64,000 bases of DNA from Gammaproteobacteria bacterium (GCA_965221955.1 CBDCTA010000022.1:373734-437733); one strand, 5' to 3'. Shown: positions 15,582 through 55,768, numbered from the stretch's first letter. The notes: generated from the sequence alone by a model not told the origin. Numbers and translations: made by a program.

Positions 15582-16040
15582 ATGAAAATTCTAAAAAAGT
15601 TTATGGCGAATAGTTTAACACTTATCGTAGTTTCCATTATTTTAACCGGCCCCACGCATGCCGGAGATTTGATGGAGCTTACTGAGACTGATGATGCCGT
15701 AATCGAGGGTGAGAAAGAGTACCAAGAGAGATGTGCACTCTGCCATGGAGAAAATGGTAAAGGAGATGGCCCATATTCTTTTGCTCTAGTTTTTAAACCT
15801 GCAGATTTGACTAAATTACTTAAGGAGGACGGCACGTTTCCTTTTTTAGAAACATATTTAATTATCGATGGGCGTGATATGAATAAATATCATGGCACAC
15901 GTTTAATGCCGATATGGGGAGATCGATATAGTCAAGAAACTTGGACTCATGTTAGTCCTGATTTTGCTAGCACCTTAATTAGGGGGCGTATATTTGAGCT
16001 GGTGTTATTCCTATATTCAATCCAAGATCCGGCACTATAA
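15582..16040 (+). CDS. Periplasmic monoheme cytochrome c (paralog 1 of 6)
   Basis: Signal peptide, CALCH, PADLTKL, GTFP, IDGR, HG...MPIWG and RGRIFEL. GGAG RBS favours ATG 15582. Confidence 0.88.
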   Translation: MKILKKFMANSLTLIVVSIILTGPTHAGDLMELTETDDAVIEGEKEYQERCALCHGENGKGDGPYSFALVFKPADLTKLLKEDGTFPFLETYLIIDGRDMNKYHGTRLMPIWGDRYSQETWTHVSPDFASTLIRGRIFELVLFLYSIQDPAL

Positions 16041-16074
16041 ATTTGTACTAATAAGAAGTTAGGAGGTATATAAA

Positions 16075-16260
16075 ATGCTAGGCGGAATTATTTTAATTAT
16101 TGCTGGAATTCTTGTAGCAGTTTACCCACCACTTTTATCGCTAATTGTAGCCTCAGTGTTAATATTATTAGGCATCATCACAGTTTCTATTGCCTATCAT
16201 AATAGGAAATTACGCAGACATTATGACAACCCTGTAATTGAGCTATTTTTTAGACTATAA
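16075..16260 (+). CDS. 61-aa two-TM small membrane protein
   Basis: Strong AGGAGG RBS and a hydrophobic hairpin (MLGGIILIIAGILVAVYPPLLSLIVAS...). Confidence 0.75.
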   Translation: MLGGIILIIAGILVAVYPPLLSLIVASVLILLGIITVSIAYHNRKLRRHYDNPVIELFFRL

Positions 16261-16296
16261 AAAAACTTTTAACAAAAAGCCTATCCTTAGTATCAG

Positions 16297-16851
16297 ATGT
16301 TTAACATCGATCAAGACGATATTAGAAGAATTTCTGGGCAACTTGATACCCTGTATACTGCTTTAAAATGCTATGTTTATTACACAGAGGTGAAAAGTAA
16401 ACTCGATATAGAAAAGAACAATGCGCAGTGCTGGGGATTTATTGAGTTTACCTTGATGTATACGATGCTAATAAATTGGAATGAAATATTTGGCATCAAT
16501 GCTAAAGGAAATCACTGGAAAGAACTTACTTTTGAGCAAGATGAATATATAGATAAACTCTATGATTCGGGGGGATATACCTATGCAAGTTGGTCTGAAT
16601 ATCGCCGTAAAATAAATGATCTTTGTAATACGTTTATTTCGTTTCCAGATCCATACCATCATAAAAATCAAGAGTATGATTTAACAGGCATAAAAGTTTC
16701 ACTAGAAGTCACCCATCATTGGCTACATAAGATTGTAGCTGATGCCAGCGATATTCTTAGTAACGAAGAAGCAGAGAAATGGCCGATTGCCAATATCAAT
16801 TATATTGAGGAGCTAAAAAAAGAAATTCAGGCTGTTTTTAATAATGCATAG
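16297..16851 (+). CDS. Hypothetical protein (possible degenerate HEPN-like helical domain)
   Basis: 184-aa ORF. The pattern INWNEIFG...HWK and DLCNTFISFPD sits where an RNxxxH motif would be. Family assignment is inference. Confidence 0.6.
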   Translation: MFNIDQDDIRRISGQLDTLYTALKCYVYYTEVKSKLDIEKNNAQCWGFIEFTLMYTMLINWNEIFGINAKGNHWKELTFEQDEYIDKLYDSGGYTYASWSEYRRKINDLCNTFISFPDPYHHKNQEYDLTGIKVSLEVTHHWLHKIVADASDILSNEEAEKWPIANINYIEELKKEIQAVFNNA

Positions 16852-16874
16852 CTATTTATAGTATGAAGATATGA

Positions 16875-17312
16875 TTATCTTTTATTATTTTTATTATGTA
16901 TAAGCTGTTGCATTTGTAGATAGGTGAAAGACGCTGTCCATGCGATGAGTACTAAACCGGTTAAAGCTTCGGAACCTGCGGTAAATCGAATGTGACCAAC
17001 AGGTACAATGTCTCCATAGCCTAGAGACGTATAATTCACAAAAGAAAAATATACGCAATCTAATATCGTATTGCTAAATTCGCCAATTACTTCACCCGTA
17101 TTATTGAGTGGCAGCAAAAAATAATATAAAAATGAAAACATCCATACTTCTATTACATGGGTAAGGATGACGATAAGTACGCCTACGGGTAATAGCAGCC
17201 TCGAGGGCCATGAACGCTTAAAATGTTTTTCAGCGAGATGAGTCAACACTTCATAATGAAGCGCAACGGCTAACACGATAACTAATATCGTGCTGATAAA
17301 AACGACTGGCAT
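16875..17312 (-). CDS. Small K+ channel-like protein (Ion_trans_2)
   Basis: Pore motif YFSFVNYTSLGYGDIVP flanked by TM helices. Confidence 0.85.
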   Translation of the reverse strand: MPVVFISTILVIVLAVALHYEVLTHLAEKHFKRSWPSRLLLPVGVLIVILTHVIEVWMFSFLYYFLLPLNNTGEVIGEFSNTILDCVYFSFVNYTSLGYGDIVPVGHIRFTAGSEALTGLVLIAWTASFTYLQMQQLIHNKNNKR

Positions 17313-17364
17313 TTAGGATATTTAGTTTTAAATTTATCAAAAAATATCTATAAGCCAGACAACT

Positions 17365-17502
17365 TTACCAATTAAATAAAGCGATTACGACCCAAAAAAC
17401 TACAGAAAGTCCTACACATAAAACGGCGACTTCAAACCAATTTTCTTTAGTAAAAGTAGCCAATTCATGGCAGAACTGATCAAATCTTGATGCGTATTTC
17501 AT
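17365..17502 (-). CDS. 45-aa single-TM small protein (not in the ORF track)
   Basis: MKYASRFDQFCHELATFTKENWFEVAVLCVGLSVVFWVVIALFNW*. GGAG RBS 7 nt upstream; degenerate TGA-N6-TCA site at 17587-17600. Confidence 0.6.
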   Translation of the reverse strand: MKYASRFDQFCHELATFTKENWFEVAVLCVGLSVVFWVVIALFNW

Positions 17503-17637
17503 TGCTAATCTCCATTTGTTTAAATAAGTAACAAGTCATTACTTGCTGACTTAAATTCAATACTAAGCCAACAATTAAAAATTGATCTGAGCTAAGTCAA
17601 TATCAGCTATACAAATGAATAATTGGGGATTAATTAT

Positions 17638-18717
17638 TTAGCTTCCCGTGGTGATCATGTTTATTAGCCAAGCTAATAGAATGACTTGAGGGACAGCAAT
17701 TAGCGGTAGAAATAATGCAATTTTCCAAGACTTAGTCGTATCACGTAACACCATAATCTCAGTGTAATCGGTAGATACACCCGTCATTAGAAAAGCGAAG
17801 CTATTCCCTGGTGCATTCGCGCGGGTCAATATATCTGCTGCAATGGGAGTGGAGCCTTCAGAACACACCTCTATCACGGTTGCAGCAATCAGAGTTAAGG
17901 CAAGTCCCATTACTGTCGGGCCAAAATAAGTTTGAAAGGTATCAGCATCCAAAAGTACTCGAACCAATCCTGCTAGTAATACACCAAATAATATCCAACG
18001 TATTACCATGCGTGATTCCATCACGCCATCTTTTAGCATCCCCCAAAAAAAAGATGTGCTAAACGTTGTAGCATTCCATCTAGATTTTGCTTCACGCCAG
18101 AATTGAAAGTTTTTGGGCAAGTCAATTTTATGGATATTATCCGGAAGTACTTTTGCAATGACTAACTTATCAAAAATGAGTCCAGTAATGATTGCAACCA
18201 ACATAGAAGCTGCAATAAATAATAGCGTCCATTTCAGTCCGACTAATGCGATTAAAATCAGCGTCAGCGAAAATGAATTCCATGGGCTCGCAACCAAAAA
18301 TGCCATCACTTGCCCTGCACTGACTCCTCTTTCATATAATTTTGCCCCGACCATTAAAATGCCATGACTGCATAAATCCAGTAACACACCACCTATGGTG
18401 GCGCGCAAGATGCCACGTAAGCCATTACCTGTTCCAAGCAAGGAAACCACAAACTCTCTTGGAACCTTAGTTAATATCGCGACCATAACCATCCCAATGG
18501 CGATCCCCCACCAAATAGTATTAATTAATTCAAAAGTAGAATGGCTTAATGAAGCCAGCGGTGAGATCGAAGAAATTTGGCTAGAAAAAAGCCAATGTAA
18601 ACAATAAAGCACTATTGAGAGGATTAAAGTGCTCCAAAGCAAATAATCAGGCCGACCTTTTTTTACATCGCAGCATGTGTTCTGCTTCGTAGTCTCTACA
18701 TGACAATGCTCGCTCAT
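17638..18717 (-). CDS. DUF318/ArsP-family permease
   Basis: Internal repeat motifs LDLCSHG and IEVCSEGSTPI, AFLVASP, and an N-terminal HCH...CC metal-binding-like tail. Confidence 0.8.
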   Translation of the reverse strand: MSEHCHVETTKQNTCCDVKKGRPDYLLWSTLILSIVLYCLHWLFSSQISSISPLASLSHSTFELINTIWWGIAIGMVMVAILTKVPREFVVSLLGTGNGLRGILRATIGGVLLDLCSHGILMVGAKLYERGVSAGQVMAFLVASPWNSFSLTLILIALVGLKWTLLFIAASMLVAIITGLIFDKLVIAKVLPDNIHKIDLPKNFQFWREAKSRWNATTFSTSFFWGMLKDGVMESRMVIRWILFGVLLAGLVRVLLDADTFQTYFGPTVMGLALTLIAATVIEVCSEGSTPIAADILTRANAPGNSFAFLMTGVSTDYTEIMVLRDTTKSWKIALFLPLIAVPQVILLAWLINMITTGS

Positions 18718-18920
18718 GAATACCCTTTAATGATCAGCTAAAAATGGTTGGTAAGTATTCTACTATTAACTTGCCAGCTAATCAGAGGAGTATCGAATAT
18801 GCTCACAAATACTATAGAGATTTCTCCAAGCATGATTGATTTAAATTAGGTTATTCCAAGAGTGTGTATTTGCTAGTGATCTATAAAATTAAATGAGAAT
18901 AACGTAAGTATATTATGTGT

Positions 18921-19313
18921 TTATGGATTATTGTTGTTTAATATCGACTGCATCCGCTCAATAAAATCTCTTTCCACAATTGGTTTTTCAATAAAATCTG
19001 CAGCGCCTGCTTGTATGGCTTTTACCGCTGTGTTCACACTGTTGTCACCATCAGCTAGGACCACAACAGGTGTAGACAAGCCATGTTCACGCATTTGTTT
19101 GATAAACGTTATACCATCAGTATTATTCAGCTTAATTTCGGTAATTAAACAGGCTGGAGTTTCAGAAATCGGTGCGGTTAAAAATGCTTTAGCATTATCA
19201 AAAGTTTTCACTTCGGCAGGAATTTTTTTCAGCAATTGAGTAATTTGATCGCGAGTATCCTCATCGTCTATGATGAGATGGATAGGTTTCCTTTTGTTTA
19301 ATTTCCAAATCAT
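18921..19313 (-). CDS. Single-domain receiver protein, FixT-like (phospho-Asp replaced by Glu)
   Basis: IIDDED, CLITEIKL (E where FixJ has CILADVRM) and DFIEKP. Directly downstream of fixJ with its own FNR box. Confidence 0.8.
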   Translation of the reverse strand: MIWKLNKRKPIHLIIDDEDTRDQITQLLKKIPAEVKTFDNAKAFLTAPISETPACLITEIKLNNTDGITFIKQMREHGLSTPVVVLADGDNSVNTAVKAIQAGAADFIEKPIVERDFIERMQSILNNNNP

Positions 19314-19402
19314 TGATAATTGTAATAGCTGCTATACGACTACACCTCAGGGTTTCAACCTGCCCTAACTAAAAGAATGACATAGATCAGAAGATCAAAA
19401 TA

Positions 19403-19416
19403 ATGATCTCAATCAA
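19403..19416. promoter_or_regulatory. FNR box (1 mismatch) upstream of the FixT-like gene
   Basis: ATGATCTCAATCAA, plus a weaker TGA-N6-TCA site at 19377-19390. Confidence 0.7.
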
Positions 19417-19494
19417 TTTTTTTCTATTTGGATCGCTTGGAGTGTTTATTTTGTGTCTAAACGGACTTGTTTGACTTAGCTAAGAGGACAATGA

Positions 19495-20100
19495 CTAAGA
19501 ATTGAGCATAATTTTAACCAGCTCAGCTACAGATTTTGCACCCAGTTTCTCCATAGCGTGCGAGCGGTGGATTTCGACTGTGCGATCACTAATATCCAGT
19601 TCCCGTGCAATCACTTTATTAGCTTTACCTTCTAAAACTAAATCAACTACTTCCTTCTCACGTGCAGTAAGCGTATTTACTCGATTTTGGTTAGCCAGTA
19701 GGTTTTCACGCAATTTTCGATTCGCAAGGTCTTTTTCTAGTGCTTGAGTGACGCAATCGAGTAGTTCTTGATCTCGAAATGGCTTTTGTAAAAATTCAAA
19801 TGCACCATCCTTCATCGCTTGAACTGCCATAGTAATATCGCCATGGCCTGTCATTATGATTAACGGTTGAGGTGCTTTTAATTCGATTAATTTGTGTTGC
19901 AATTCAATGCCACTCATACCAGGCATGCGCACATCTGCAAGAATGCAGCCAGATACGTTTTCATTAAATTCATTCAAAAAATTAACTGCCGAGTCATAAG
20001 CTTGAGTTTGTAATCCAATAGATTCAATTAATTCTACCAAGCTGTCGCGTACATCTTCATCGTCATCAATAATGTATACAATTTTTTGTTCTTCACTCAT
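19495..20100 (-). CDS. fixJ: FixJ-family response regulator (REC plus LuxR HTH)
   Basis: IIDDDEDVRDSL, CILADVRMPGMSG, MTGHGDITMAV and LTAREKEV...ANKVIARELDISDRTVEIHRSHAMEKL. Confidence 0.9.
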   Translation of the reverse strand: MSEEQKIVYIIDDDEDVRDSLVELIESIGLQTQAYDSAVNFLNEFNENVSGCILADVRMPGMSGIELQHKLIELKAPQPLIIMTGHGDITMAVQAMKDGAFEFLQKPFRDQELLDCVTQALEKDLANRKLRENLLANQNRVNTLTAREKEVVDLVLEGKANKVIARELDISDRTVEIHRSHAMEKLGAKSVAELVKIMLNS

Positions 20101-21623
20101 GCTTCTTCCAATACAGTAGGTATAGTGAAATGAAAAGTAGTTCCTTTATCTGTGTTTTGGGTAAACCACATATGCCCTCCATGCAGTTGGATGATTGATT
20201 GACAAATTGCTAAACCCATGCCCATCCCGGAAGATTTTGTCGTATAAAATGGGTTAAATAAATTTTGCGCGGTTTCTTCATCTATACCTTTGCCAAAATC
20301 TCTTACCGAAACTTGGATTCTATTTTCATTTTTTAATAAAGTAGATGAAACAATGATTTTTTTATATTTCTGGTCTTCTACTGCGGTTGCTTCCATTCCA
20401 TTACGAATTAAATTTAATATCACCTGTTGAATTTGTATTGCATCCGCTGCAACATTTGGCAAAGTATCTGCAAGCTCAAGTTTAATTTTAAACTCCATGG
20501 CTTGGGTATCTGCTTGCGCTAAATTCGCTGCCTCTTCTATTGAAGTATTAATATTTATATAGGCATGTGTTTTGGTTTCATGCTTCACCATAGCTCGTAA
20601 GCGAGCAATAACATCACTTGCCCGCAAAGAAGCTTTAGAGATTTTCTTAAGTAATTCATGCAATTTCTCATAGTCTATATTTTCAGCTTTTATCCTGCGT
20701 TGCGCTGCTTTCGCGTAGGAATCAATTGCGGTTAATGGCTGATTGATTTCATGTGCAATTCCAGCTGCCATTTCTCCCATCATGCTTACACGATCCATAT
20801 GTGCCAGTTGCTCTTGTTGAGTTTTGATTTGCTCTTCTGTCTCTACATCTTTAGTGATGTCTAAAATATGAGTGATTAATAAGGCAGGTTCACCTTTTTC
20901 ATCATGTGCAAGTGCGACATTTTCATTTACTAGCGCAACATTTAATAATACATTTATAACTTTGTTGTCTTTGCGTAGATAACGTTTTTCAAGACTGTAT
21001 CCAGATAGGTCACCGCTTAATAATTTTCGTAAGTAATCTTTGCTGACATCAATATCATCTGGGTGAGTAATATCGATGTAGGTTAGTTTTAAAAGTTCAG
21101 GTTTAGAGTAGCCTAAAATATCGCATAAAGTTGGATTTACATTTACATACTTACCATCTAGATTCATTACCGCTACACCAGTCGGCGCATTTTCAAAAAC
21201 CAGCCTGAACTCTTCTTCATATAAGCGAGATGCTTCTTGAGCCTGTTTGACATCGGTAAGATCCTGAATGAATCCGGTAAAATAATGCTGATTATTATCT
21301 GTGAATTCGGCGACGGATAACCATATCGGCAGGCTACTACCGCCCTTTCGTAGGGCAGTAAGTTCCCGCCCCTTTCCAATAATCTTGGCATCACCAGTGG
21401 TAAGATAACTATGAATATAACCATCATGTTGTTCTTGGTAGGGAGACGGCATAAGCATGCTGATATTTTTTCCAATGACTTCTTCTGCCGTATAAGCAAA
21501 CATTCTTTCAGCGGCAGGATTAAAGGACTGGATGATTCCAGCATTGTCGATGGTAATAATGCCCTCAAAAGATGATTCAATAATCGCGTGTAAGCGCGAA
21601 GCAGTATTCAAAGGGACAGTCAT
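20097..21623 (-). CDS. fixL: FixL-type O2-sensing histidine kinase (heme-PAS, PAS, HisKA, HATPase; no TM)
   Basis: Heme-PAS signature LMPSPYQEQHDGYIHSYLTTGDAKIIGKGRE (proximal His, distal Arg), H-box GIAHEINQPL, and N/G boxes. 4-nt overlap with fixJ. Confidence 0.9.
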   Translation of the reverse strand: MTVPLNTASRLHAIIESSFEGIITIDNAGIIQSFNPAAERMFAYTAEEVIGKNISMLMPSPYQEQHDGYIHSYLTTGDAKIIGKGRELTALRKGGSSLPIWLSVAEFTDNNQHYFTGFIQDLTDVKQAQEASRLYEEEFRLVFENAPTGVAVMNLDGKYVNVNPTLCDILGYSKPELLKLTYIDITHPDDIDVSKDYLRKLLSGDLSGYSLEKRYLRKDNKVINVLLNVALVNENVALAHDEKGEPALLITHILDITKDVETEEQIKTQQEQLAHMDRVSMMGEMAAGIAHEINQPLTAIDSYAKAAQRRIKAENIDYEKLHELLKKISKASLRASDVIARLRAMVKHETKTHAYININTSIEEAANLAQADTQAMEFKIKLELADTLPNVAADAIQIQQVILNLIRNGMEATAVEDQKYKKIIVSSTLLKNENRIQVSVRDFGKGIDEETAQNLFNPFYTTKSSGMGMGLAICQSIIQLHGGHMWFTQNTDKGTTFHFTIPTVLEEA

Positions 21624-22014: not shown

Positions 22015-22761
22015 ATGCAAACCGCAACCGCTATACCAGTTCAAAAGACATATGCATCAGCACATATGTACACACAAAATAATTGCCAACATTGCCATAA
22101 AACTGATGTTTGCTTTGCGCATTCATTAGAGGGTGAAGAGCTTGAAGCTTTTAATTCAATTGTTAAGCATTCTAAGAAATTAAATCGAGGGGATTATCTC
22201 TATCAAGCAGGAGATCAATTCAATTCGATTTATGTCATTCGCAGTGGTTCTATTAAAACCTTCATTGATGACGAAGAAGGTCGTGAACAAATATTAGGAT
22301 TTTCGATTCAGGGCGACGTAGTCGCATTAGACGGTACCACCTCAACGGTATATCCCACTTCCGCGCAAGCGCTAGAAACTACCTATGTATGTGAAATTCC
22401 TTTTGCACGCTACATGGAGTTAGCGGCTGAGATTCCTGCTCTTTATCAACACTTGTTGACACAAATGACTCATCAAATTCGAGATGATGAAGAACATACA
22501 TTGTTGATTGGTACAAAAAGCGCCGAACAACGTCTTGCGACCTTATTAGTCAATTTTTCCAATCGCTATGCTGAAAGAGGGTTTTCAAAGACGGAGTTTA
22601 ATCTACATATGTCACGTCGTGATATTGGCAACTACCTCTCAGCTGCCATGGAAACTGTTAGCCGATTATTTTCTCGCTTACAAGCGAATGGCCTTATTGA
22701 AGTACATGGCAAGCTCGTGGCCATTAAAGACCTAGAAGGATTGCAAAGATACGCATCATAG
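22015..22761 (+). CDS. fnr: FNR-type Crp/Fnr regulator with all four [4Fe-4S] cysteines
   Basis: CQHC-x5-C at the N-terminus, internal YVCEIPF, AEQRLA, and recognition helix ETVSR. Confidence 0.88.
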   Translation: MQTATAIPVQKTYASAHMYTQNNCQHCHKTDVCFAHSLEGEELEAFNSIVKHSKKLNRGDYLYQAGDQFNSIYVIRSGSIKTFIDDEEGREQILGFSIQGDVVALDGTTSTVYPTSAQALETTYVCEIPFARYMELAAEIPALYQHLLTQMTHQIRDDEEHTLLIGTKSAEQRLATLLVNFSNRYAERGFSKTEFNLHMSRRDIGNYLSAAMETVSRLFSRLQANGLIEVHGKLVAIKDLEGLQRYAS

Positions 22762-22970: not shown

Positions 22971-23387
22971 ATGAAAAAAAATTACACGTACAGTTTTATC
23001 TTAATTGTGTTGTTAATTTCTTCGATAAACATTAGTGCTGCTGAAGAAGTTAAAGATATAGTAGGTAAGAAAGAGTTTATGACCTATTGTGGGTCTTGCC
23101 ACGGAAGTGATGGAAAAGGGGATGGACCGATTGTTGACTTTATTAAACGAAAACCTGTGGATTTAACTCAACTTACTAAAAACAATGACGGTGCTTTCCC
23201 TTTTGAACGCATTTGGGGTGTATTTGATGGTAGTTATATCTTCGCAGAGCATGGTACGAGTGATATGCCGATTTGGGGTTATCGCTTTGTGCAAGAAGCA
23301 CAACAAAAAAATGAATCTGATATCTCTAGTAAAGCTAGAGCAAAAGCCTTAAATATAATTTTATATATACAAGTCATACAGGAGTGA
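22971..23387 (+). CDS. Periplasmic monoheme cytochrome c (paralog 2 of 6)
   Basis: Start set to ATG 22971 (MKKNY...). Signal peptide, CGSCH, PVDLTQL, GAFP and HGTSDMPIWG. Confidence 0.88.
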   Translation: MKKNYTYSFILIVLLISSINISAAEEVKDIVGKKEFMTYCGSCHGSDGKGDGPIVDFIKRKPVDLTQLTKNNDGAFPFERIWGVFDGSYIFAEHGTSDMPIWGYRFVQEAQQKNESDISSKARAKALNIILYIQVIQE

Positions 23388-23389: not shown

Positions 23390-23848
23390 ATGAAATCAGT
23401 AATCAAATGCTCAATGTTAATAGTTTTTACTCTTATATCACTACACGTGTATGCAGATTCAGCTGAACGTGATCCTATTATCGGTGGAGTGGAGTTTGAG
23501 CGTTCTTGCGCTATATGCCATGGATTTAATGGTAAAGGTGCAGGCGTGATGGCAGACTCATTAACAAAAGCGCCATCAGATTTAACGCAACTTACAAATA
23601 ACAATAATGGCCATTTCCCTTTTAATGACGTGTATCGAACTATTGAAGGTTCACCCAATGTTGGAGTTCATGGCACAAGAGAAATGCCAATTTGGGGTGA
23701 CCGTTATCGTATGGAAGCTGAAGAATATAATGAATTAGCTAAAAAATACCATGAAATAACTCAACAGTCCGCTATCGATGAATACCTTTATTCACGTGGT
23801 CTAATCCTTGACCTAATTGTTTATATTATGTCTATACAAGAACAATAA
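23390..23848 (+). CDS. Periplasmic monoheme cytochrome c (paralog 3 of 6)
   Basis: AGGAG RBS, signal peptide, CAICH, PSDLTQL, GHFP and HGTREMPIWG. Confidence 0.88.
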   Translation: MKSVIKCSMLIVFTLISLHVYADSAERDPIIGGVEFERSCAICHGFNGKGAGVMADSLTKAPSDLTQLTNNNNGHFPFNDVYRTIEGSPNVGVHGTREMPIWGDRYRMEAEEYNELAKKYHEITQQSAIDEYLYSRGLILDLIVYIMSIQEQ

Positions 23849-23873: not shown

Positions 23874-24107
23874 ATGTCTAAAACAGTTAGCAGAGATGAA
23901 TTATTAACCAAGCAACATGAGCTTATAGACCGTGTTACAGCTATTAAAAGAGATTTCGAGAGTGGATTAGACCCTGACCTCGAAGAGCAAGCTCAACAAT
24001 TGGAAAACTATGAGGTTTTACAGAGGTTGCTAGAACAAGCGAATGCAGAACTTGATAAAATAGACGAGCAATTAAGGAAAATGGCTGTTGTGTCTGATAC
24101 TAATTAA
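23874..24107 (+). CDS. DksA/TraR-like coiled-coil protein lacking the C4 zinc finger
   Basis: AGGAGG RBS. LDPDLEEQAQQLENYEVL...ELDKIDEQLRKM resembles the DksA/TraR-family N-terminal half. No Cys. Confidence 0.65.
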   Translation: MSKTVSRDELLTKQHELIDRVTAIKRDFESGLDPDLEEQAQQLENYEVLQRLLEQANAELDKIDEQLRKMAVVSDTN

Positions 24108-43206: not shown

Positions 43207-44379
43207 ATGCATAACCGAGTATTAATCTTTTTCGATTCAATAATACTGATCATGCTAACAACGATATTTTCTACAGGACTTGCCACAGATGTGCAACAAG
43301 ACATTAAAGCAGTGGGAGCAAAAATTAGAGTCATCTCTGAAAATGCCAATAACATTTATGCAGCGGGAGCAAATGTTTCCATTGAAGGTAAAGTTAATGA
43401 GGATATATGGGTTGCGGGTGCGATTGTAGATATTGAAGTTGATACTGATGGTGATCTACACGCCGCTGGGGCACGCGTGAACCTTAATGGCACAGTTAAT
43501 GGAACTGCGCGAATCGCAGGAGCAGATTTAAAAATTGATGCAGTTATTGAAGAATCACTTAATGCCGCTGCTGCATCCATTGTGATTTCAGAAAATACGA
43601 AGCTTGATGATGAATCCTCATTAGCGGCTGCATTAATAGAATTTCATGGAACTGCACATGACGATCTAAAACTATATGCAGATGAAGTTGTATTTTCAGG
43701 ACATGCAAATAATTCAATTACTATTGAAGCAAGAAATGTACGACTAGAAGAAACGGCACGAATTGAAGGTGATTTAATTATTCGCTCCAGTGAAGAACCC
43801 GTTATCTCTTCAAGTGCAGCTGTTGCTGGAAAAGTAACTCAAACAGGTCTCGAAGATTCAGAGTTTTTTAAAGATAAAGAGGATGAGTTTGATGGCCGTG
43901 GATTTTTCATACTTCTTTCAACCAGTATATTTTTGCTCGGTTTAATACTCGTCTTATTTACTCGCAGTTTTACCGAACAAGCTATTACTACTTTACGATT
44001 AAAGCCAGGCCGTAGCTTTCTCTCGGGTCTGCTTGTGTTTTTTGGCGTGCCGTTTTTTGTATTTATTGCAATGATTAGTTTTATTGGAATTCCAATAGGT
44101 GTTGCTACACTTTTATTACTACCGTTTTTACTTATTCTTGGTCTTACAACCACAAGTCTTGGTATTTCAGACTGGTTGTTAAATAAGAAAAATGAAGCTA
44201 AAAAAACAGGTCAACGGCTTCTTTTGCTACTTGTGGGTGTAATCCTACTTATCGTTATAGGCGTCATTCCATTTATAGGCGGTTTGCTAATTTTCATAGC
44301 TTTGTTACTAGGGCTTGGCGCCACAGCCGTTACCTTTATTTCTCGTTTGAGCGACAAATCCAAAGAAGCAATAGCTTAA
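43207..44379 (+). CDS. Secreted beta-helix (bactofilin/polymer-forming-like) repeat domain plus C-terminal multi-TM protein
   Basis: Signal peptide, repeated AAGA.V.I.G.V units, and about 5 C-terminal TM segments. Confidence 0.7.
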   Translation: MHNRVLIFFDSIILIMLTTIFSTGLATDVQQDIKAVGAKIRVISENANNIYAAGANVSIEGKVNEDIWVAGAIVDIEVDTDGDLHAAGARVNLNGTVNGTARIAGADLKIDAVIEESLNAAAASIVISENTKLDDESSLAAALIEFHGTAHDDLKLYADEVVFSGHANNSITIEARNVRLEETARIEGDLIIRSSEEPVISSSAAVAGKVTQTGLEDSEFFKDKEDEFDGRGFFILLSTSIFLLGLILVLFTRSFTEQAITTLRLKPGRSFLSGLLVFFGVPFFVFIAMISFIGIPIGVATLLLLPFLLILGLTTTSLGISDWLLNKKNEAKKTGQRLLLLLVGVILLIVIGVIPFIGGLLIFIALLLGLGATAVTFISRLSDKSKEAIA

Positions 44380-44456
44380 AAAGTCTTCCCTATTAATCTT
44401 AAGATTTAAGATGTTGCTTTTGAAATGTGAAAGTTAATATCGATTTGAGTTCTATA

Positions 44457-44873
44457 TTACTCTACTTGAATGCATTTTAAGTACTCTATTAGGTTGCTGA
44501 TTCGTTCATCTACAACATCTTCGTCAGTCTCAATGTCTTTAAAGTGCTGACCCCAAATTGGCATTTCTTGTCCATGGTAATCACCTACTCTACGACCATC
44601 AATAATGTTATATACAGCTGTTTCGGGAAATGATCCTCCATTTTCTTTGCTAAGAATAGTGAGATCACTTGGTGTTGCTGAGAGTTGTTTTGCTTTAGGC
44701 CCTGCACCTTTGCCATCATCTCCGTGGCAGCTTGCGCAATTGTTCATATACTCTTTGGCGCCGATAATTTGCTCAATCTCGGCATCCGCATGAAGATTAG
44801 AATGCGCAATGGATACTACAGAAATTACAACAATTGCTGCGCTTTTATATAAATTAGTATTCATACATTTCAT
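44457..44873 (-). CDS. Periplasmic monoheme cytochrome c (paralog 4 of 6)
   Basis: Signal peptide, CASCH, PSDLTIL, GSFP, IDGR and HGQEMPIWG. Confidence 0.88.
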   Translation of the reverse strand: MKCMNTNLYKSAAIVVISVVSIAHSNLHADAEIEQIIGAKEYMNNCASCHGDDGKGAGPKAKQLSATPSDLTILSKENGGSFPETAVYNIIDGRRVGDYHGQEMPIWGQHFKDIETDEDVVDERISNLIEYLKCIQVE

Positions 44874-45307
44874 TGCACTTGAATCTCTTCTAAATACAAA
44901 AGCAGCTCAAAGATGCGGCCGCGAACAAAGGTCCTTGTGAAACGTTCATCTACATACAACAGGCTTTCATGATCAAAGCGATCACCCCAGATTGGCATAG
45001 ACTTAGGGCCGTGGACTTTTATATCGTCTCTTCCTTCAACTGTTCTATAGATTTTTCTGGTTGGGAAAATGCCATTATTTTCTTTTTGTAGTAAAGATAG
45101 ATTAGTAGGCTTGACGATAAGTTTGGGTGCATAGATGCCATTACCTTTACCATTATCACCATGACACAATGCGCACGAACGCATGTATTCAGATTTGCCT
45201 GCGTCGATTGCCTCTTGCAGTTCTTGTCCCACAGCAATTGTTGAAGTTCCAATAAAAATTATCAGAAGACATATAAGCCCTCGAAAAATGCTAAGCAGCA
45301 TACTCAT
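44870..45307 (-). CDS. Periplasmic monoheme cytochrome c (paralog 5 of 6)
   Basis: Signal peptide, CALCH, PTNLSLL, GIFP, HGPKSMPIWG and RGRIFEL. Confidence 0.88.
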   Translation of the reverse strand: MSMLLSIFRGLICLLIIFIGTSTIAVGQELQEAIDAGKSEYMRSCALCHGDNGKGNGIYAPKLIVKPTNLSLLQKENNGIFPTRKIYRTVEGRDDIKVHGPKSMPIWGDRFDHESLLYVDERFTRTFVRGRIFELLLYLEEIQVQ

Positions 45308-45384
45308 TGATTTTATCTCCTGTATATTATTATCTACTGATTAAAAATATAATTATAACCCTGACACTATAATAATTGTTGATA

Positions 45385-45398
45385 TTGATCGAGAGCAA
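45385..45398. promoter_or_regulatory. FNR box (1 mismatch) upstream of cytochrome pair 5-4
   Basis: TTGATCGAGAGCAA. Confidence 0.7.
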
Positions 45399-45415
45399 GT
45401 TTCATCTAATTAAAA

Positions 45416-45811
45416 TCAGTTTCTATGCTTATTATGCTGATGACCTTTAGGTGTTTCTGAATATTCCTGTGAAACGAAAAATGGTGCAGCTGCTAGAGCT
45501 AATATCGCAATTAGTCCAATCAATCCGAGAATTAAACGAGAACTACTAGACTCTTTGGCTCTGCCCTGAAACACTTTTTGAATAAATTTCCAATGTAATA
45601 TTAAATGTGTAGCTAATACAGTTAAAAATATAAAAGTTATATAAAAGTGTATTTCACCCCATTCATGTCGCGACATTCCAAATATTTCAATATATCTTCC
45701 ACTTCCATGTGGTAGTACGTATCGCATTAATACACCTGTAGAAACCACAAACACAAAGCTAATAAAAGCGAGTATATCTATAAACATTACTACTTTTGCT
45801 TTATTAATCAT
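45416..45811 (-). CDS. DUF4405-family membrane protein (possible heme b binder)
   Basis: STGVL...RHEWGEIH...HLILHW with three TM helices. Confidence 0.8.
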   Translation of the reverse strand: MINKAKVVMFIDILAFISFVFVVSTGVLMRYVLPHGSGRYIEIFGMSRHEWGEIHFYITFIFLTVLATHLILHWKFIQKVFQGRAKESSSSRLILGLIGLIAILALAAAPFFVSQEYSETPKGHQHNKHRN

Positions 45812-45869
45812 TGGAAGTTTTTTCCTTTCTTAATACTTAAGATGCTGTATTAATGAGGCATAAAAAAAT

Positions 45870-47267
45870 TTATAGATCATATGATTGATGAATTTTAGGC
45901 ATTTTAACCTTTGTATTATGTAACTCTTGTGCAAAGGCCTGCATGCTCTCTTTTTCACCATGCACTAAGAAGGTTGTTTTTGGGTTACCTGTTTTTGCAT
46001 GCCAAGCTAATAATTCAGCTTGATCTGCATGTGCAGAAAATCCACCTATAGTATGAATATTTGCATGCACTGGTATTTCTTCACCAAAAATACGCACGCT
46101 TTTTGCCCCATCAATTATGTTGCGCGCTAAAGTTCCATGTGCTGCATACCCAACAAAGATCACACTACACTCTTTACGCCAAAGATTATATTTTAAATGA
46201 TGACGAACTCGACCACCGGTACACATTCCCGAACCCGCCATAATAATTGCGCCACCTGAGATCTGGTTTATCGCTATAGACTCTGCTGTTTCTCTAGCAA
46301 AGTGAAGACCAGGTGGACTAAAGACATCATTACTTTCATGTGAAACTTGTAAAGTCTCTGCATCAAAGCATTCAGGATGACGTTCATATATTTCGGTAGC
46401 AGAAATCGCCATGGGAGAATCAAGAAACACATTGCTAAAATGTTTCAAGTAATTATTTTTAATTCCTTCACGCAATGTATAAAGAATCTCTTGGGCACGC
46501 TCTAGTGCAAATGTAGGAATAATTACATTACCACCTCTACCAATTGTGTCATTGATCACGTCAAATAATTCATCTGTGGACGGTTGTAATTGCTTATGTA
46601 ATCGATCTCCATAGGTAGTTTCCATAACAACAGTATCTACATGTGGTGGCGGTGTGGGGTCGCGTAATATGATGCGGCCACTATAACCAAGATCACCAGA
46701 AAACAATAAACGATGATAATGATGCTCTTCTTGTAATTCTAAAAATATACTTGCCGAGCCGAGTATGTGGCCTGCATCAATAAAGGTTGCCTTTATGCCA
46801 GGCGTTAACTCAATAGGAGTGCCATAACTGGCTTTACGACCAAAACATTCTAGACAATTTAGTGCATCAAGCGTGGTATACAAAGGTTCAATTCTACTGT
46901 CTCGCGTTTTGCCACCACGGCGTCGCATTCTTCTTAATTGATAACGTGCTTCTTCTTCATGCAAGCCTGCAGAATCGAGCATAATTAGCCGTGCTAATTC
47001 AACGGATGCTGCAGTGGTGATCACTTCACCCTTAAAACCTCGTTTAACGAGTAAAGGGATTCGTCCGCAATGATCGAGATGTGCATGGGTAAGTAATAGA
47101 TAGTCGATTGATGCTGGGTCAAAACCAAAAGGTTCGGCATTTTCTTCAACAAGTTCTCTTCTGCCCTGATACATTCCACAATCCACCAGCACACGTTTAC
47201 CTGAGCACTCCAACAGATGGCAAGAACCGGTAACATTTTGGTCTGCACCATGAAAAGAGATTCTCAT
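45870..47267 (-). CDS. Metallo-beta-lactamase/beta-CASP ribonuclease (CPSF3/YSH1-like)
   Basis: VTGSC, DCG, THAHLDHCG, AGHILGS, SGDLG, ETTYG, FALERAQE, SGMCTGGR and FSAHAD. Confidence 0.92.
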   Translation of the reverse strand: MRISFHGADQNVTGSCHLLECSGKRVLVDCGMYQGRRELVEENAEPFGFDPASIDYLLLTHAHLDHCGRIPLLVKRGFKGEVITTAASVELARLIMLDSAGLHEEEARYQLRRMRRRGGKTRDSRIEPLYTTLDALNCLECFGRKASYGTPIELTPGIKATFIDAGHILGSASIFLELQEEHHYHRLLFSGDLGYSGRIILRDPTPPPHVDTVVMETTYGDRLHKQLQPSTDELFDVINDTIGRGGNVIIPTFALERAQEILYTLREGIKNNYLKHFSNVFLDSPMAISATEIYERHPECFDAETLQVSHESNDVFSPPGLHFARETAESIAINQISGGAIIMAGSGMCTGGRVRHHLKYNLWRKECSVIFVGYAAHGTLARNIIDGAKSVRIFGEEIPVHANIHTIGGFSAHADQAELLAWHAKTGNPKTTFLVHGEKESMQAFAQELHNTKVKMPKIHQSYDL

Positions 47268-47276
47268 TATTTCTCT

Positions 47277-48227
47277 CTATATAAGTGATCCACCATTACT
47301 CTCATACCAACATAACAAGCCTTCCCAAATTTCTTCCGCAGTTTCCGCATACCAAAACAGATCGCGATCCTCAATATCAATGACTCCTTCATCAAGCATG
47401 AAGTCAATATTAAATGCTTTTCGCCAATAGTCTTCACCAACTAAAATAACAGGAACAGGTTTGATTTTTCGTGTTTGAATTAAGGTTAAAGTTTCAAATA
47501 ATTCATCAAAGGTTCCATAGCCACCAGGAAATGCGACTAGAGCTTTCGCTCTCAACATGAAATGCATTTTACGTAATGCAAAATAATGAAACTGAAAACA
47601 CAATTCTGGACTTATGTAAGGATTAGGGAATTGCTCAAGCGGTAAAGTAATATTTAAGCCTACATTTTTTGCACCTACATCATGCGCACCACGATTTGTA
47701 GCTTCCATAATCCCAGGCCCACCGCCAGTCATGACAACTAAGCGTGAATCTTCAGGACCTTTTCCAGAATTTGCTACTAATTTAGAAAACTCACGGGCAA
47801 TATCATAATAGTGGCTCTTTGCTAAAATACGTTCTGCTACTAGAAGTTTTCTTTTTAACTCAACATCCTCTGGTTGCTTACTTGTAGCATCACGTAAGTA
47901 GTTAACTTTCTTGTTTGCAGAAGCTGGTTCAACAATTCGTGTACTGCCAAATACTACAATTGTATTATCCACGCCATGCTGTTTCATTAATCTTTCAGGC
48001 TTAAGGTAATCAAGCGCTAAGCGCACACCACGTGCATCATCACTTGCTAAGAAATCTATGTCTTTAATGGATGATATGTAGGATGGGCTATTAAGAATAA
48101 CTTTTAATTTTTCTTTACATTCTGGGTCTTCTTCAACGGGCTTAGGTGTTTGCCACGGTAAGGACTCTTTACGTCGAGTCGGGTCAGCTGGTTTAGGTAT
48201 TTCAGGCTTATGATCTTTGTCATTCAT
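47277..48227 (-). CDS. LOG-family nucleotide monophosphate nucleosidase (long type)
   Basis: VVFGSTR, TGGGPGIMEA, EQFPNPY, YFALRKMHF and PGGYGTFDE. Confidence 0.88.
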   Translation of the reverse strand: MNDKDHKPEIPKPADPTRRKESLPWQTPKPVEEDPECKEKLKVILNSPSYISSIKDIDFLASDDARGVRLALDYLKPERLMKQHGVDNTIVVFGSTRIVEPASANKKVNYLRDATSKQPEDVELKRKLLVAERILAKSHYYDIAREFSKLVANSGKGPEDSRLVVMTGGGPGIMEATNRGAHDVGAKNVGLNITLPLEQFPNPYISPELCFQFHYFALRKMHFMLRAKALVAFPGGYGTFDELFETLTLIQTRKIKPVPVILVGEDYWRKAFNIDFMLDEGVIDIEDRDLFWYAETAEEIWEGLLCWYESNGGSLI

Positions 48228-50993: not shown

Positions 50994-51012
50994 GAAAAAA
51001 TTGGATGTAAAA

Positions 51013-52059: not shown

Positions 52060-52144
52060 ACAATTTCTCTACTTTTTTATTGAGTTGAGCTGTTATATAA
52101 ATGTTTCATTTTTAATAACTATAAACAGATATTTAATTCAAGCA

Positions 52145-52158
52145 TTGACCAATGTCAA
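52145..52158. promoter_or_regulatory. FNR-type box (symmetric TTGAC variant)
   Basis: TTGACCAATGTCAA between the divergent HPF-like and hydrolase genes. Confidence 0.7.
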
Positions 52159-52194
52159 AGGTGTGATGCTGAATATTGACTTAAATAAAAGACG

Positions 52195-53325: not shown

Positions 53326-53428
53326 CACTACTACTTTCTTATTGATTGATTGTTATTCATGAATGAGTGCTTTATAGCAAGCCGGTATAAACTTAAATTA
53401 AACCTTCTAATAAATATAGATGATTTGT

Positions 53429-53442
53429 TTGATATAGGTCAA
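53429..53442. promoter_or_regulatory. FNR box (1 mismatch) upstream of the FmdB-like gene
   Basis: TTGATATAGGTCAA. Confidence 0.75.
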
Positions 53443-53500
53443 CTTAGAGAAGTGCCAAGCAATAGTATAAATACATTGATATAAACAACTAAACAATGCG

Positions 53501-53665
53501 ATGCCTATTTACGATTTCAAATGTAACGATTGTGGCCATGAATTTGAAATGATCGAATCATTCAAAGAACATGATGAACACAAGGAAAAGTGTCCTAAGT
53601 GCAATAGCGCCAATATTGAAAGAGTATTCAGCGCAGTTAGCGTACAAACTTCAAAAAAGTCTTAG
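53501..53665 (+). CDS. FmdB-family zinc-ribbon protein, 54 aa (not in the ORF track)
   Basis: MPIYDFKCNDCGHEFE...CPKCNSANIERVFSAVSVQTSKKS*. Confidence 0.88.
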   Translation: MPIYDFKCNDCGHEFEMIESFKEHDEHKEKCPKCNSANIERVFSAVSVQTSKKS

Positions 53666-53666
53666 T

Positions 53667-54242
53667 CTAAGAAGCCAATAAGAAAATTAAAACTGCTGTG
53701 ACTAGTGCTATAAAAAGAGTGCGAAAACCTGACCATAACCAGTTGCTATTACTAATTTCCCCCAAAAAAACACCTAACAAGAATACGATTCCAAATGCTA
53801 TCAATATAGCGGTTTCTATTGCGCCGATAGGTAAAATAAATTCATGAGTAGCGATCCAGATTGGCGATAAAATTATTAGTGATATTACTAATGGTGAAAG
53901 ACTATTAACTGAAGCGGTAATCAAGGGCAAGTAGCGTGCTGCCTGGCCGTAAGCAGAACTTTCTAAATCTTTTAGCATTGCTTGTTCGAGCTCACCCAAT
54001 TGCTTTTTTTGCTCTGCGGACTCACTCATATATGCACTGGTTAAGCCACTCATTCCAAGAGCAATTGCTGCACCAAAACAAGCATTCATAACGATATTTA
54101 AGTTTGTCGAATCACTCAAGTAAAAACCTACAATAATGCCAAGCATTGTAAGTGCACCATCAAAACCATTAACAATGAAGTATCGCCTTAGAATGCCTTG
54201 CGAACGTGAAATTTTAAAAAAGAGTGATAACTGCTTAAACAT
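53667..54242 (-). CDS. VIT1/CCC1-like (TIGR00267-type) membrane protein
   Basis: RRYFIVNGFDGALTMLG, IALGMSGLTSAYMSESAE and ELEQAML. Confidence 0.8.
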   Translation of the reverse strand: MFKQLSLFFKISRSQGILRRYFIVNGFDGALTMLGIIVGFYLSDSTNLNIVMNACFGAAIALGMSGLTSAYMSESAEQKKQLGELEQAMLKDLESSAYGQAARYLPLITASVNSLSPLVISLIILSPIWIATHEFILPIGAIETAILIAFGIVFLLGVFLGEISNSNWLWSGFRTLFIALVTAVLIFLLAS

Positions 54243-54267
54243 GCTATCTGATTTAGAAAATGTCTAC

Positions 54268-54531
54268 CTAATTTTCAACATTTATGACTTGCACTTTGTC
54301 GATGCTGTGAACTGAACCTCCCAAGCTTGTAATTACTTTAGAGATGGTTTCATAATCTAAATCTTCTCCATCAATATCAATAATGACGGATTCGGTTTTT
54401 TCATCTACCTCATCAACCGTTAATTCTATTTTTGCTCCAGGACATTTTTCTGAAATTGCAGAAGTAAAATTTATACAATCTGGGTGGTGAGGTTTTAAGA
54501 CATCAAGAACTATACGTTTTATTGAAATCAT
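54268..54531 (-). CDS. DUF211-family protein
   Basis: IKRIVLDVLKPHHP...EVDEKTE...GGSVHSIDKV. Confidence 0.85.
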   Translation of the reverse strand: MISIKRIVLDVLKPHHPDCINFTSAISEKCPGAKIELTVDEVDEKTESVIIDIDGEDLDYETISKVITSLGGSVHSIDKVQVINVEN

Positions 54532-54617
54532 AATACTTTAATTTATTTATTTTCGAATTTTATTTAAACAGTAATGGGGTCGTTTTAGAATTTTTATCTA
54601 ACCATGTATTATTTTGT

Positions 54618-54839
54618 TTACCTTTTTATCTCATCATCTCGATAATGAAAATCTATCCAACACCTTGGTAAACTTTCTCCAGATAAGAAAGTTAAATCTT
54701 TTTTTCTAAATTTTTCTGGTTCTTGAACTTCCTCTCCCCAGTGAGATCGACCCTCAACATCAGCTTTAAAAGGATCAAATAAATCAGAAATATTTAATAT
54801 TTCTACTAAATGATGATTCTCTGAATTTTTAAGAAACAT
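54618..54839 (-). CDS. Conserved-looking 73-aa protein of unknown function
   Basis: MFLK...LVEI...LFDPF...GEEVQEPEKF.K..L.FLSGESLPRCW.D.HYR. Follows trxC on the same strand. Confidence 0.75.
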   Translation of the reverse strand: MFLKNSENHHLVEILNISDLFDPFKADVEGRSHWGEEVQEPEKFRKKDLTFLSGESLPRCWIDFHYRDDEIKR

Positions 54840-54853
54840 ATTAAATATACAGC

Positions 54854-55290
54854 TTATAAATTTGCTTCAACAAACTTTACAAGATTTTGTTGATCCAGTG
54901 CTCCCGATTGCCGTGCAACTTCTTTACCATTCTTGAATACTATAATTGTAGGAATGCTACGAATTCCATAATGTGCTGCAATATCTTGAGAAAACTCGGT
55001 GTTTAGTTTTGCCAGCCGTGCATGCGGTTCAATGACAGTGCATGTCTGTTCAAATATTGGCGCCATCATTTTGCACGGCCCGCACCAGGAAGCCCAAAAG
55101 TCCACAACTACAGGCACATCGGTTTTGTTAATAACTTTTGAGAAGTTTTTACTGGTTAACTCTAACGGCTTACCATTAAACAAATATTGATGACACTTGC
55201 CACATTTGGGGTGTTGAGCAGTTTATTGTGTAGTAGACGATTTGTTACTTCACAATGTGGGCAAGTAATATTGATTAAATTTGACGCCAT
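54854..55290 (-). CDS. trxC: Thioredoxin 2 (zinc-finger thioredoxin), split by a 1-nt frameshift near 55220
   Basis: One frame from ATG 55290 reads [19 protein letters not shown]. The other frame reads [17 protein letters not shown]...[11 protein letters not shown]. Confidence 0.85.
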
Positions 55291-55330
55291 TTGAATAAAT
55301 AAGGAGGCATGAATAGTAACTTCAAGTTTG

Positions 55331-55768
55331 CTATGGGGCTTGTAAGGTATCTAAAAATATAAGTAACTCAAATATACGTCCACGTACAAAAGTTTGTGCA
55401 TTATCAGAACCAAACTCGGATATGCTCTCAGAACGATAGCGATTTCCCCAGATTGGCATACTGCTGCTGCCATGGAATGTGAAATCATCGCGGCCGTCAA
55501 TCATTCGGTAAATGCTTGGTATGGGTATGGTTCCATTATTATTTCTAGCTAAAACAGTTAAATCGGCTGGTTTAGTAAGTAGTCTCGAAGCGTAAAGACC
55601 ATCACCTTTTCCTTTAACGCCATGACAAATTTCACAAGAACGCTGATATTCGATTTTTCCTGCTTCAGCAGTATTATTAACCACATCAGCAAATACTGGT
55701 CCGCATACTGTATAGATCAATAATAATCGGACTGAATGTTTTAGAAATTGCTTGTTAAATTGAAACAT
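55331..55768 (-). CDS. Periplasmic monoheme cytochrome c (paralog 6 of 6)
   Basis: Signal peptide, CEICH, PADLTVL, GTIP, IDGR, HGSSSMPIWG and RGRIFEL. Confidence 0.88.
   Translation of the reverse strand: MFQFNKQFLKHSVRLLLIYTVCGPVFADVVNNTAEAGKIEYQRSCEICHGVKGKGDGLYASRLLTKPADLTVLARNNNGTIPIPSIYRMIDGRDDFTFHGSSSMPIWGNRYRSESISEFGSDNAQTFVRGRIFELLIFLDTLQAP

Follow-up and report, generated by a model that had tools for sequence, protein, structure and literature searches.

The window analysed here is a stretch of 64,000 nucleotides from a Gammaproteobacteria bacterium (GCA_965221955.1, CBDCTA010000022.1:373734-437733), which carries six genes for small c-type cytochromes between positions 15582 and 55768. 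We labelled these open reading frames (ORFs) c1 to c6 along the sequence and refer to the organism's own genome as G000. The six genes are listed below by window coordinates, with lengths in amino acids (aa) and the isoelectric point (pI) of the mature part.

15582-16040, plus strand: c1, class I monohaem cytochrome c, 152 aa; acidic mature part, pI 4.6; C-terminal RGRIFEL; orthogroup support 100/99
22971-23387, plus strand: c2, 138 aa; pI 5.4; leads the tandem pair directly 3' of fnr
23390-23848, plus strand: c3, 152 aa; pI 4.8; 12-residue insertion ahead of the last helix; orthogroup support 100/99
44457-44873, minus strand: c4, 138 aa; pI 4.5; second in the pair with c5; orthogroup support 97/96
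44870-45307, minus strand: c5, 145 aa; pI 7.0; RGRIFEL; copy chosen for the structure model
55331-55768, minus strand: c6, 145 aa; pI 6.1; RGRIFEL; closes a string of a protein-isoaspartate methyltransferase (PCMT)-EreA-like fusion, a 298-aa protein and c6

Sequence family and fold of the six cytochromes

A first-pass annotation, drawn up from the sequence alone, had described six paralogous genes with a shared string of motifs at these positions, and the alignment confirmed this. With c1 as the reference, c2-c6 show 37-44% identity over the full length, and 24 columns are invariant across the six, including G..E....C..CHG..GKG.G, P..L..L, G..P, HG and MPIWG. The RGRIFEL end indeed occurs in three copies, c1, c5 and c6, and two pairs are tandem as described: the start of c4 overlaps the stop of c5 by 4 bases, and 2 bases lie between c2 and c3. 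No stop was seen within any of the six ORFs. Read by eye from the sequence rather than with a signal-peptide predictor, all six N-termini pass from a basic to a hydrophobic stretch and then to a small-residue site, giving them a Sec-type look. The number of copies in the genome, on the other hand, was underestimated. A search of the whole 2.69-Mb assembly with a profile of the six sequences gave eight members, the extra two at G000:C11:115-540 and G000:C4:67086-67448 (the C11 and C4 copies). The next matches below these eight had E values of 7.5e-5 and weaker and included the haem domains of the real CcoP.

Conservation was counted in an alignment of 63 diverse family members, which was also the basis of an AlphaFold model of c5. 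Invariant in all 63 are two cysteines, a histidine and the glycine next to it, the Met-Pro of the loop, a later glycine and a C-terminal glutamine. The CxxCH motif near the mature N-terminus (C51, C54 and H55 in c1 numbering) is preserved in all six window copies as well as in 63/63 members, and the loop methionine lies 55 residues past its histidine. Such invariance is expected of a sixth haem ligand and supports the proposal of the first-pass annotation that the MPIWG methionine is the distal ligand; the axial ligands would then be the CxxCH histidine and this methionine.

An additional histidine, five residues ahead of the methionine, had been called invariant as well, but it is kept in at least 90% of the 63 members and not in all. 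This residue bears on the possibility that the copies bind ligands, act as haem-based sensors or store electrons, with the histidine as a switchable ligand. Its high conservation is in favour of such a role, as are the neighbouring genes, which are stress genes rather than respiratory genes, and a basal copy that directly follows a truncated globin in two relatives. The invariant methionine and the standard His/Met class I fold predicted by the model argue the other way, and the proteins have no output domain and a single haem that can store little charge. A histidine near the methionine loop can also bind a haem propionate in other class I cytochromes. We consider a ligand-binding, sensing or storage function very unlikely; electron storage, one of the functions suggested in the first-pass annotation, is unlikely with one haem per protein.

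Five of the six copies passed the Pfam cut-off for PF00034 (22.2-30.0 bits against 21.3), and c4 (29.1) and c5 (27.0) also reached the cut-off of 27 for PF13442; c6 stayed below both, with 17.1 bits for PF00034 and 24.1 bits for PF13442. An NCBIfam scan of the six gave nothing close to any cut-off. The CcoP/FixP subunit (TIGR00782) was rejected as an identity: the best score, 25.9 bits, is far below the cut-off of 179.95, FixP_N gave no match, and each protein has a single haem motif. The named small cytochromes of NCBIfam (c550, c551, c6, PedF, cL, XoxG-type and SoxA) were rejected at 11-26 bits against cut-offs of 68-2000, and cytochrome c4 (the protein class, not our gene c4) in view of the one haem per gene and an E value of 0.63 for PDB entry 8uf3_A.

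The c5 model had a predicted local distance difference test (pLDDT) score of 88.9. Foldseek returned no match to it in the PDB at E<=0.001, and the top rows of VIA-align contained only c-type cytochromes, at Z 8.3-10.1: Kustc0457 (Z 10.1), the c552 of Thioalkalivibrio (Z 10.0, root-mean-square deviation 2.0 over 90 residues), ActE of alternative complex III (ACIII; Z 9.3 and 9.0) and CcoP (Z 8.3). In a sequence search of solved structures the best match was the dihaem Kustc0457 (E 2.8e-15, covering the first half of the domain only), followed by CcoP domains. The Pfam, NCBIfam and PDB searches thus yielded no curated family and no solved close relative for the six. Names in protein collections were purely generic (72 matches in one search, 120 listed of 974 in another), and the ESM Atlas gave only clusters named 'c-type cytochrome'. 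The first-pass annotation knew of no characterised function for the family, and we likewise found no characterised member among curated families, solved structures and database names. By every computable criterion the six are predicted to be ordinary monohaem His/Met class I cytochromes c, in a subfamily that no curated resource names. Their architecture is that of known cytochromes c throughout; what makes them interesting is the conserved link to hypoxia and the expansion of isoforms.

FNR boxes and the surrounding gene island

FNR boxes were defined by the consensus TTGAT-N4-ATCAA and graded by mismatch count. The window contains 22 sites with at most one mismatch, against 7.55 +/- 2.42 in 100 shuffles, none of which reached 22. 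It makes up 2.4% of the genome and holds 9 of the genome's 41 exact boxes and 22 of its 464 one-mismatch sites. The boxes ahead of the cytochrome genes and the regulatory genes are as follows.

15513-15526: exact FNR box TTGATTTATATCAA, centre 62 bases ahead of the c1 start codon
45379-45398: two overlapping one-mismatch boxes, including that at 45385, 78-84 bases ahead of the c5 start
55837-55850: degenerate box TTGATctagCACAA, 2 mismatches with one perfect half-site, 75 bases ahead of c6
22015-22761, plus strand: fnr, CRP/FNR regulator; Cys24-x2-Cys27-x5-Cys33 and Cys126, read from the sequence
20097-21623, minus strand: FixL-like PAS histidine kinase, divergent from fnr; kept beside fnr in relatives
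19495-20100, minus strand: FixJ-like response regulator, divergent from fnr; kept beside fnr in relatives
18921-19313, minus strand: single-domain receiver, divergent from fnr

The claim that every copy sits behind an FNR box or right after fnr held in part: the box at 15513 is exact and c2-c3 directly follow fnr, but the site at 45385 has one mismatch, that at 55837 has two, and c2-c3 are without a box. Of six close c1 orthologs, five keep the exact box and one has a single mismatch in it; two basal copies of the c1 clade lack the box, their best sites having 2-3 mismatches. Three orthologs of the c5-c4 pair likewise carry one-mismatch boxes. A sequence similar to the c6 box, of the type TTG(T/C)GCTAGATCAA, was present in two of three orthologs, with 2 and 3 mismatches. 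In the relative G015, which has a gene inserted between fnr and c2, c2 owns an exact box.

Boxes were also found far from this lineage. Within the 360 bases upstream, a box with at most one mismatch was present in 9 of 72 distant family genes and in 17 of 1156 control windows. The nine genes come without exception from proteobacteria, namely Motiliproteus, Paracoccaceae, a betaproteobacterial metagenome-assembled genome (MAG), Sulfitobacter, Roseovarius, Bradyrhizobium, Rhodoblastus and two alphaproteobacterial MAGs. Together with the conserved box of the c1 orthologs, this makes the low-oxygen control that had been suggested for the six plausible, as far as sequence can indicate. The cysteine spacing of the fnr product corresponds to that of the iron-sulfur ligands in E. 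coli FNR.

In the mechanism that we propose, the genes would belong to an oxygen-limitation island run by an FNR-type regulator together with a FixLJ-type two-component system. When oxygen falls, FNR would activate c1, c5-c4 and, more weakly, c6 from boxes located about 60-85 bases ahead of the start codons. The c2-c3 pair might be read through from fnr or be transcribed from a weak promoter of its own; no terminator-like site was found in the fnr-c2 spacer. Among the sequencing runs listed as containing window positions 44300-47300, none is recorded as RNA.

A Pfam scan of the window identified, besides FixL-like, FixJ-like and FNR regulators, four universal stress proteins, Hsp20 and a ribosome hibernation factor, as well as CHAD and MgtC-like proteins, a beta-CASP RNase, a LOG-like protein, a rhomboid protease and FtsH. 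Transport and redox functions are represented by a P-type cation ATPase, a formate/nitrite transporter (FNT), a cation efflux protein (CDF), a FadL-like outer-membrane protein, DsrE-like proteins and a thioredoxin. By this gene content, positions 16875-54531 read as a low-oxygen or dormancy island. Three further features lie upstream of c6.

55865-56761, minus strand: 298-aa protein without a Pfam family, between the fusion and c6
56770-58776, minus strand: PCMT-erythromycin-esterase-like fusion, 668 aa
58830-58843: exact FNR box upstream of the fusion and the 298-aa protein

Some of these neighbours reappear next to distant family members. In Sulfitobacter these are the same PCMT/esterase-like fusion, which adjoins a family member at locus L020, and a tandem universal stress protein. 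Roseovarius has a CRP-type regulator together with a P-type ATPase, Bradyrhizobium two universal stress proteins besides a P-type ATPase, and a Burkholderiaceae MAG a Lon-like protease and phosphoribosyltransferases. Neighbours were heterogeneous in 24 further loci, mostly from Acidobacteriota. At two loci, one from Roseovarius (L021 6471-11093) and one from Terriglobia (L066 546-4244), a large CheB-CheR-PAS-histidine kinase fusion adjoins the family cytochrome.

We conclude with good confidence that the six genes encode putative exported one-haem His/Met cytochromes c of an uncharacterised common subfamily, under predicted FNR-type control in a conserved low-oxygen island.

Orthogroups, tandem pairs and natural fusions

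Within the organism's own taxonomic family, 17 of 24 other genomes gave matches, with 1-11 in each, and the remaining seven gave 0; among 16 genomes from other families of the same class none had a match. For comparison of synteny, 20 regions were taken from ten relatives. Seven of them (G002, G006, G011, G013, G014, G015 and G022) share the arrangement, with fixLJ divergent from fnr and fnr followed by c2, c3 and a 77-aa ORF, interrupted between fnr and c2 only by the inserted gene of G015. The shared arrangement also comprises the position of c1 beside a cardiolipin-synthase-like gene, the order c5 then c4, and the string of methyltransferase/esterase-like fusion, 298-aa protein, c6 and thioredoxin.

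In a maximum-likelihood tree of 63 sequences, c1 to c6 and the C4 copy each formed a clade of their own with ultrafast-bootstrap support of 97-100, and the C11 copy was nested within the c5 clade. The tree rests on few columns and some of its branches are long, so that its deep joins are unsafe. Judged from the tree and gene order, the isoforms are old, separately conserved and apparently non-redundant orthogroups. Their different surface charges suggest that they differ in partners or redox potentials. That the copies are redundant leftovers of duplication without separate roles we regard as extremely improbable. One fold and one set of motifs across all six, and numbers of matches among relatives varying from 0 to 11, would fit redundancy, but each copy belongs to its own well-supported orthogroup with a fixed genomic place over seven genomes, all of them have kept the invariant residues, and the six ORFs are uninterrupted.

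The tandem pairs show a pattern in charge. From the pI values of c2/c3 (5.4/4.8) and c5/c4 (7.0/4.5), each pair consists of one strongly acidic and one less acidic member. Two full profile matches were present in 21 of the best 150 representatives of the family, with lengths of 213-275 aa, and in all eight fusions that were read individually both halves had complete family motifs. Natural two-domain, two-haem fusions of the family therefore exist, and they suggest that each of the two translationally coupled pairs may work as a two-haem unit split over two genes. The heterodimeric relay that the first-pass annotation had mentioned as a possible function gains indirect support from these fusions and from the conservation of the pairs across genomes. 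A complex prediction for mature c2 and c3 with two haems (score 0.01, mark 0.32) gave no usable answer and counts neither way.

Two neighbouring genes were considered as partners of the pairs.

45416-45811, minus strand: membrane protein with DUF4405, 131 aa, immediately upstream of c5; no other membrane candidate near any window copy
23874-24107, right after c3: 77-aa ORF, acidic; 71-93% identity in seven relatives

DUF4405 was rejected as a fixed membrane partner: it adjoins c5 here, is one gene away in G002 and is absent at the pair's locus in G013. The 77-aa ORF was rejected as a periplasmic partner, because it lacks a signal sequence and its product resembles a cytoplasmic coiled-coil protein.

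The family extends far beyond these relatives. A profile search against 1.84 billion representatives, clustered at 50% identity, gave 23,816 matches at E<=0.001, 6,518 at E<=1e-10 and 908 at E<=1e-30. In the profile searches of the assembly and of these representatives, family members scored about 110-280 bits. A pattern search gave 591 matches, of which 184 were confirmed as relatives and 80 loci were kept, with the full motif set in 68 ORFs. Hosts of the kept loci include Motiliproteus, Halomonas, Roseovarius, Sulfitobacter, Bradyrhizobium, Burkholderiaceae, Thiobacillaceae, many Acidobacteriota, Binatia and others, covering Alpha-, Beta- and Gammaproteobacteria, Acidobacteriota and more. 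A Roseovarius genome has 7 matches with a tandem pair among them, and 17 plasmid records carry a family member. Around one MAG, 201 genomes of a Burkholderiaceae-type family gave matches in 3, with 19 candidates scored per genome. The six diverged copies had been taken as a sign of a dedicated function. The paralogs are real, but since the family spans several phyla they represent the expansion of an existing family in this lineage and not a private invention. Three proteins of 1100-1400 aa (P0193, P0199 and P0209) match the haem-binding start of the profile 15-19 times and look like giant multihaem repeats of the N-terminal part of the domain.

Candidate partners and comparison with known systems

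The assembly encodes a Ccm haem-attachment system (CcmF and CcmC), cytochrome c1 (not to be confused with our label c1) and aa3, caa3 and cbb3 oxidases; a cytochrome bd is absent from it. It also encodes two CCP_MauG peroxidase-family proteins, soxYZ, a flavocytochrome c sulfide dehydrogenase, DsrE-like genes and a NapC/NirT-type cytochrome. The true CcoP (G000:C29:145838-147130; L102 5839-7131) is a protein of 430 aa with three haem motifs against the usual two, and its gene is followed by a hemerythrin gene. At G000:C18:194000-200500 (L100) lies a fourth, divergent haem-copper oxidase (COX1 177 bits) with a COX2-like subunit, a 107-aa cytochrome c and SCO1; this cluster adjoins a divergently transcribed Rrf2-family regulator and could be an unusual oxidase or a relative of nitric oxide reductase.

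Occurrence of the cytochromes was compared with that of canonical FixO (E<=1e-69) in the family genomes. FixO was present in 11 of 13 genomes with at least three cytochrome matches and in 1 of 12 with 0-1 match; the exceptions with at least three matches and no FixO are G005 (86% complete) and G019. As the compared genomes are kin, this is a pattern and not a statistical test. A distance of 6.6-8.2 kb separates a family match from the FixO match in five relatives. Inspection of two of these, G010 and G014, showed a c1-clade copy that directly follows a truncated globin, with an FNR-like regulator nearby. In two relatives (L126 7905-9697 and L129 7035-10033) the genes for a truncated globin and a family cytochrome overlap; a second FNR-like regulator lies upstream of this pair, and a cbb3-type oxidase cluster is a few kb away. 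In the own genome, at G000:C29:136963-139520, the regulator, OmpW and globin are kept and a different 112-aa gene follows; a near-identical copy of this segment is present on contig C10.

With confidence somewhat above even, we read the six as FNR-induced periplasmic electron carriers for microoxic respiration, in the form of non-redundant isoforms whose pairs are perhaps split two-haem units. They would link donors, such as the bc1 complex and sulfur-oxidising enzymes, to the high-affinity cbb3 oxidase, with cytochrome c peroxidases as possible further acceptors. Our confidence is moderate that they are additional isoform-specific carriers for microoxic respiration, most likely towards the cbb3 oxidase.

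Several findings weigh against this interpretation. The best site in the fnr-c2 spacer has 3 mismatches and none has two or fewer, which leaves c2-c3 boxless, and the only box of c6 has two mismatches. Neither ccoN nor the caa3-linked cytochrome c peroxidase (ccp) gene nor fnr itself is preceded by a box with at most one mismatch, so that co-regulation of the six with cbb3 is not established. G019 has 3 cytochrome matches without FixO, G016 has FixO without a match, and the co-occurrence may only reflect a single lifestyle package gained or lost together. The first-pass annotation was right that no oxidase, reductase or dehydrogenase lies beside the copies in the window. Nor does one recur beside the gene in 38 distant loci (14 proteobacterial and 24 mostly acidobacterial), so that adjacency gives no partner at all.

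If instead the copies mainly fed periplasmic dihaem cytochrome c peroxidases, they would serve in peroxide protection when oxygen returns after anoxia. Periplasmic cytochrome c peroxidases are commonly FNR-controlled. On a plasmid of Methylotuvimicrobium alcaliphilum 20Z, a family cytochrome c comes last in a string of cytochrome c peroxidase, hypothetical protein and NifX-like protein, and the own genome has two CCP_MauG matches. On the other hand, CCP_MauG was found in 24 of 24 related genomes, among them all seven that lack a match to the cytochromes, which shows the peroxidase to be independent of these carriers. None of the copies in the own genome adjoins a peroxidase, and the caa3-linked ccp gene has no upstream box with two or fewer mismatches. 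A main role in peroxide protection seems unlikely.

The eighth, divergent paralog, the C4 copy, ends a string (G000:C4:67083-72362; L098 7084-12362) that includes a YeeE-like sulfur-transport gene; several other proteins of the string have no Pfam family, and one of these bears a haem motif. The string adjoins soxYZ and is near flavocytochrome c genes, and the pair of transporter and cytochrome recurs in G001 and G014. This arrangement would suit copies that act as acceptors for periplasmic oxidation of sulfur compounds at scarce oxygen (by Sox, flavocytochrome c, thiosulfate or sulfite enzymes), as would the soxYZ, flavocytochrome c sulfide dehydrogenase and DsrE-like genes of the organism and the c552 of Thioalkalivibrio among the closest folds. 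The eighth paralog, however, has no FNR box and is in a separate clade, the six window copies are not beside sulfur enzymes, and loci from Bradyrhizobium, roseobacters and Acidobacteriota carry the family without sulfur genes. We regard sulfur oxidation as a highly unlikely explanation for the six.

A broader possibility, which we consider quite unlikely, is that the family, rather than being a plain respiratory shuttle, forms the periplasmic arm of a hypoxic-persistence programme widely shared among bacteria. Tandem or fused pairs of domains would then make up split two-haem units, and a change of coordination at low potential or pH, enabled by the near-invariant histidine, would allow the proteins to bind or detoxify O2, NO, sulfide or peroxide or to provide redox buffering in anoxia, with sets of isoforms tuned to different conditions. 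Should the copies be plain cbb3 carriers, as in the interpretation we favour, the outcome would be an annotation for thousands of 'c-type cytochrome' genes and no new principle.

Among known proteins, the haem domains of CcoP/FixP (subunit III of cbb3 oxidase; PF13442; PDB 3mk7_C) share with the window copies the class I fold, the G..Y...C..CHG..G.G start and an MP.WG-type methionine loop; profile matches to them in the PDB reached E 7e-10 to 1e-8. CcoP differs in being a membrane-anchored oxidase subunit with two or three haems, whereas the window copies are free, carry one haem and have a long final helix, (V/I)RGRI.EL...Y..SIQ. The closest free-standing solved fold is the cytochrome c552 of Thioalkalivibrio paradoxus (PDB 9vr0 and 7o9u), from a sulfur-oxidising gammaproteobacterium, but at 21% identity and an E value of 0.004 confined to the haem-binding start it belongs to a separate family. 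Kustc0457 of Kuenenia stuttgartiensis (PDB 6h5l_B) has both the best E value and the best Z among solved structures; it differs in having two haems and, by the title of the entry, in forming a complex with the hydroxylamine oxidoreductase (HAO)-like Kustc0458, and no HAO-like gene is near the window copies. Cytochrome c4 is a dihaem class I cytochrome and an electron donor to cbb3 oxidases. Its two class I domains in one unit resemble the natural fusions and conserved tandem pairs, but no sequence kinship was detected and the window genes encode one haem each.

The setting of the genes also resembles two described low-oxygen systems. The lxa locus of Burkholderia cenocepacia, as given in Table 4 of its description (PMC3721108), shares with the window universal stress proteins, alpha-crystallin, an Anr-like regulator, a two-component system, a metal-dependent RNase, a cation ATPase, an outer-membrane transporter and a c-type cytochrome. 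Its BCAM0284, a 'cytochrome c551/c552', is up 146-fold in low oxygen (PMC3721108). The likeness is one of gene content and does not imply orthology; BCAM0284 was compared by description only, and a literature search on it found no sequence and no function. In Alphaproteobacteria, a 'cytochrome c class I' (orthologous set 2551), also compared by its description only, is listed as a conserved FixK target predicted by comparative genomics, along with genes for Hsp20, CBS-domain proteins and alcohol dehydrogenase (Dufour et al. 2010, PMC2908626). In our search, boxes of the FixK type precede family members in Bradyrhizobium, Roseovarius and Sulfitobacter.

Low-oxygen stimulons of dissimilar bacteria repeatedly feature an unexplained small c-type cytochrome beside universal stress proteins, as in the lxa locus of Burkholderia and the predicted FixK regulon of Alphaproteobacteria. 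The window gives this recurring cytochrome a defined family, with 908 representatives, clear motifs and natural fusions, and its lineage adds an expansion to 6-11 conserved isoforms with visible FNR boxes in a marine sulfur bacterium. One question thereby becomes testable: which carriers support respiration and survival where oxic and anoxic conditions meet, and why more than one is needed.

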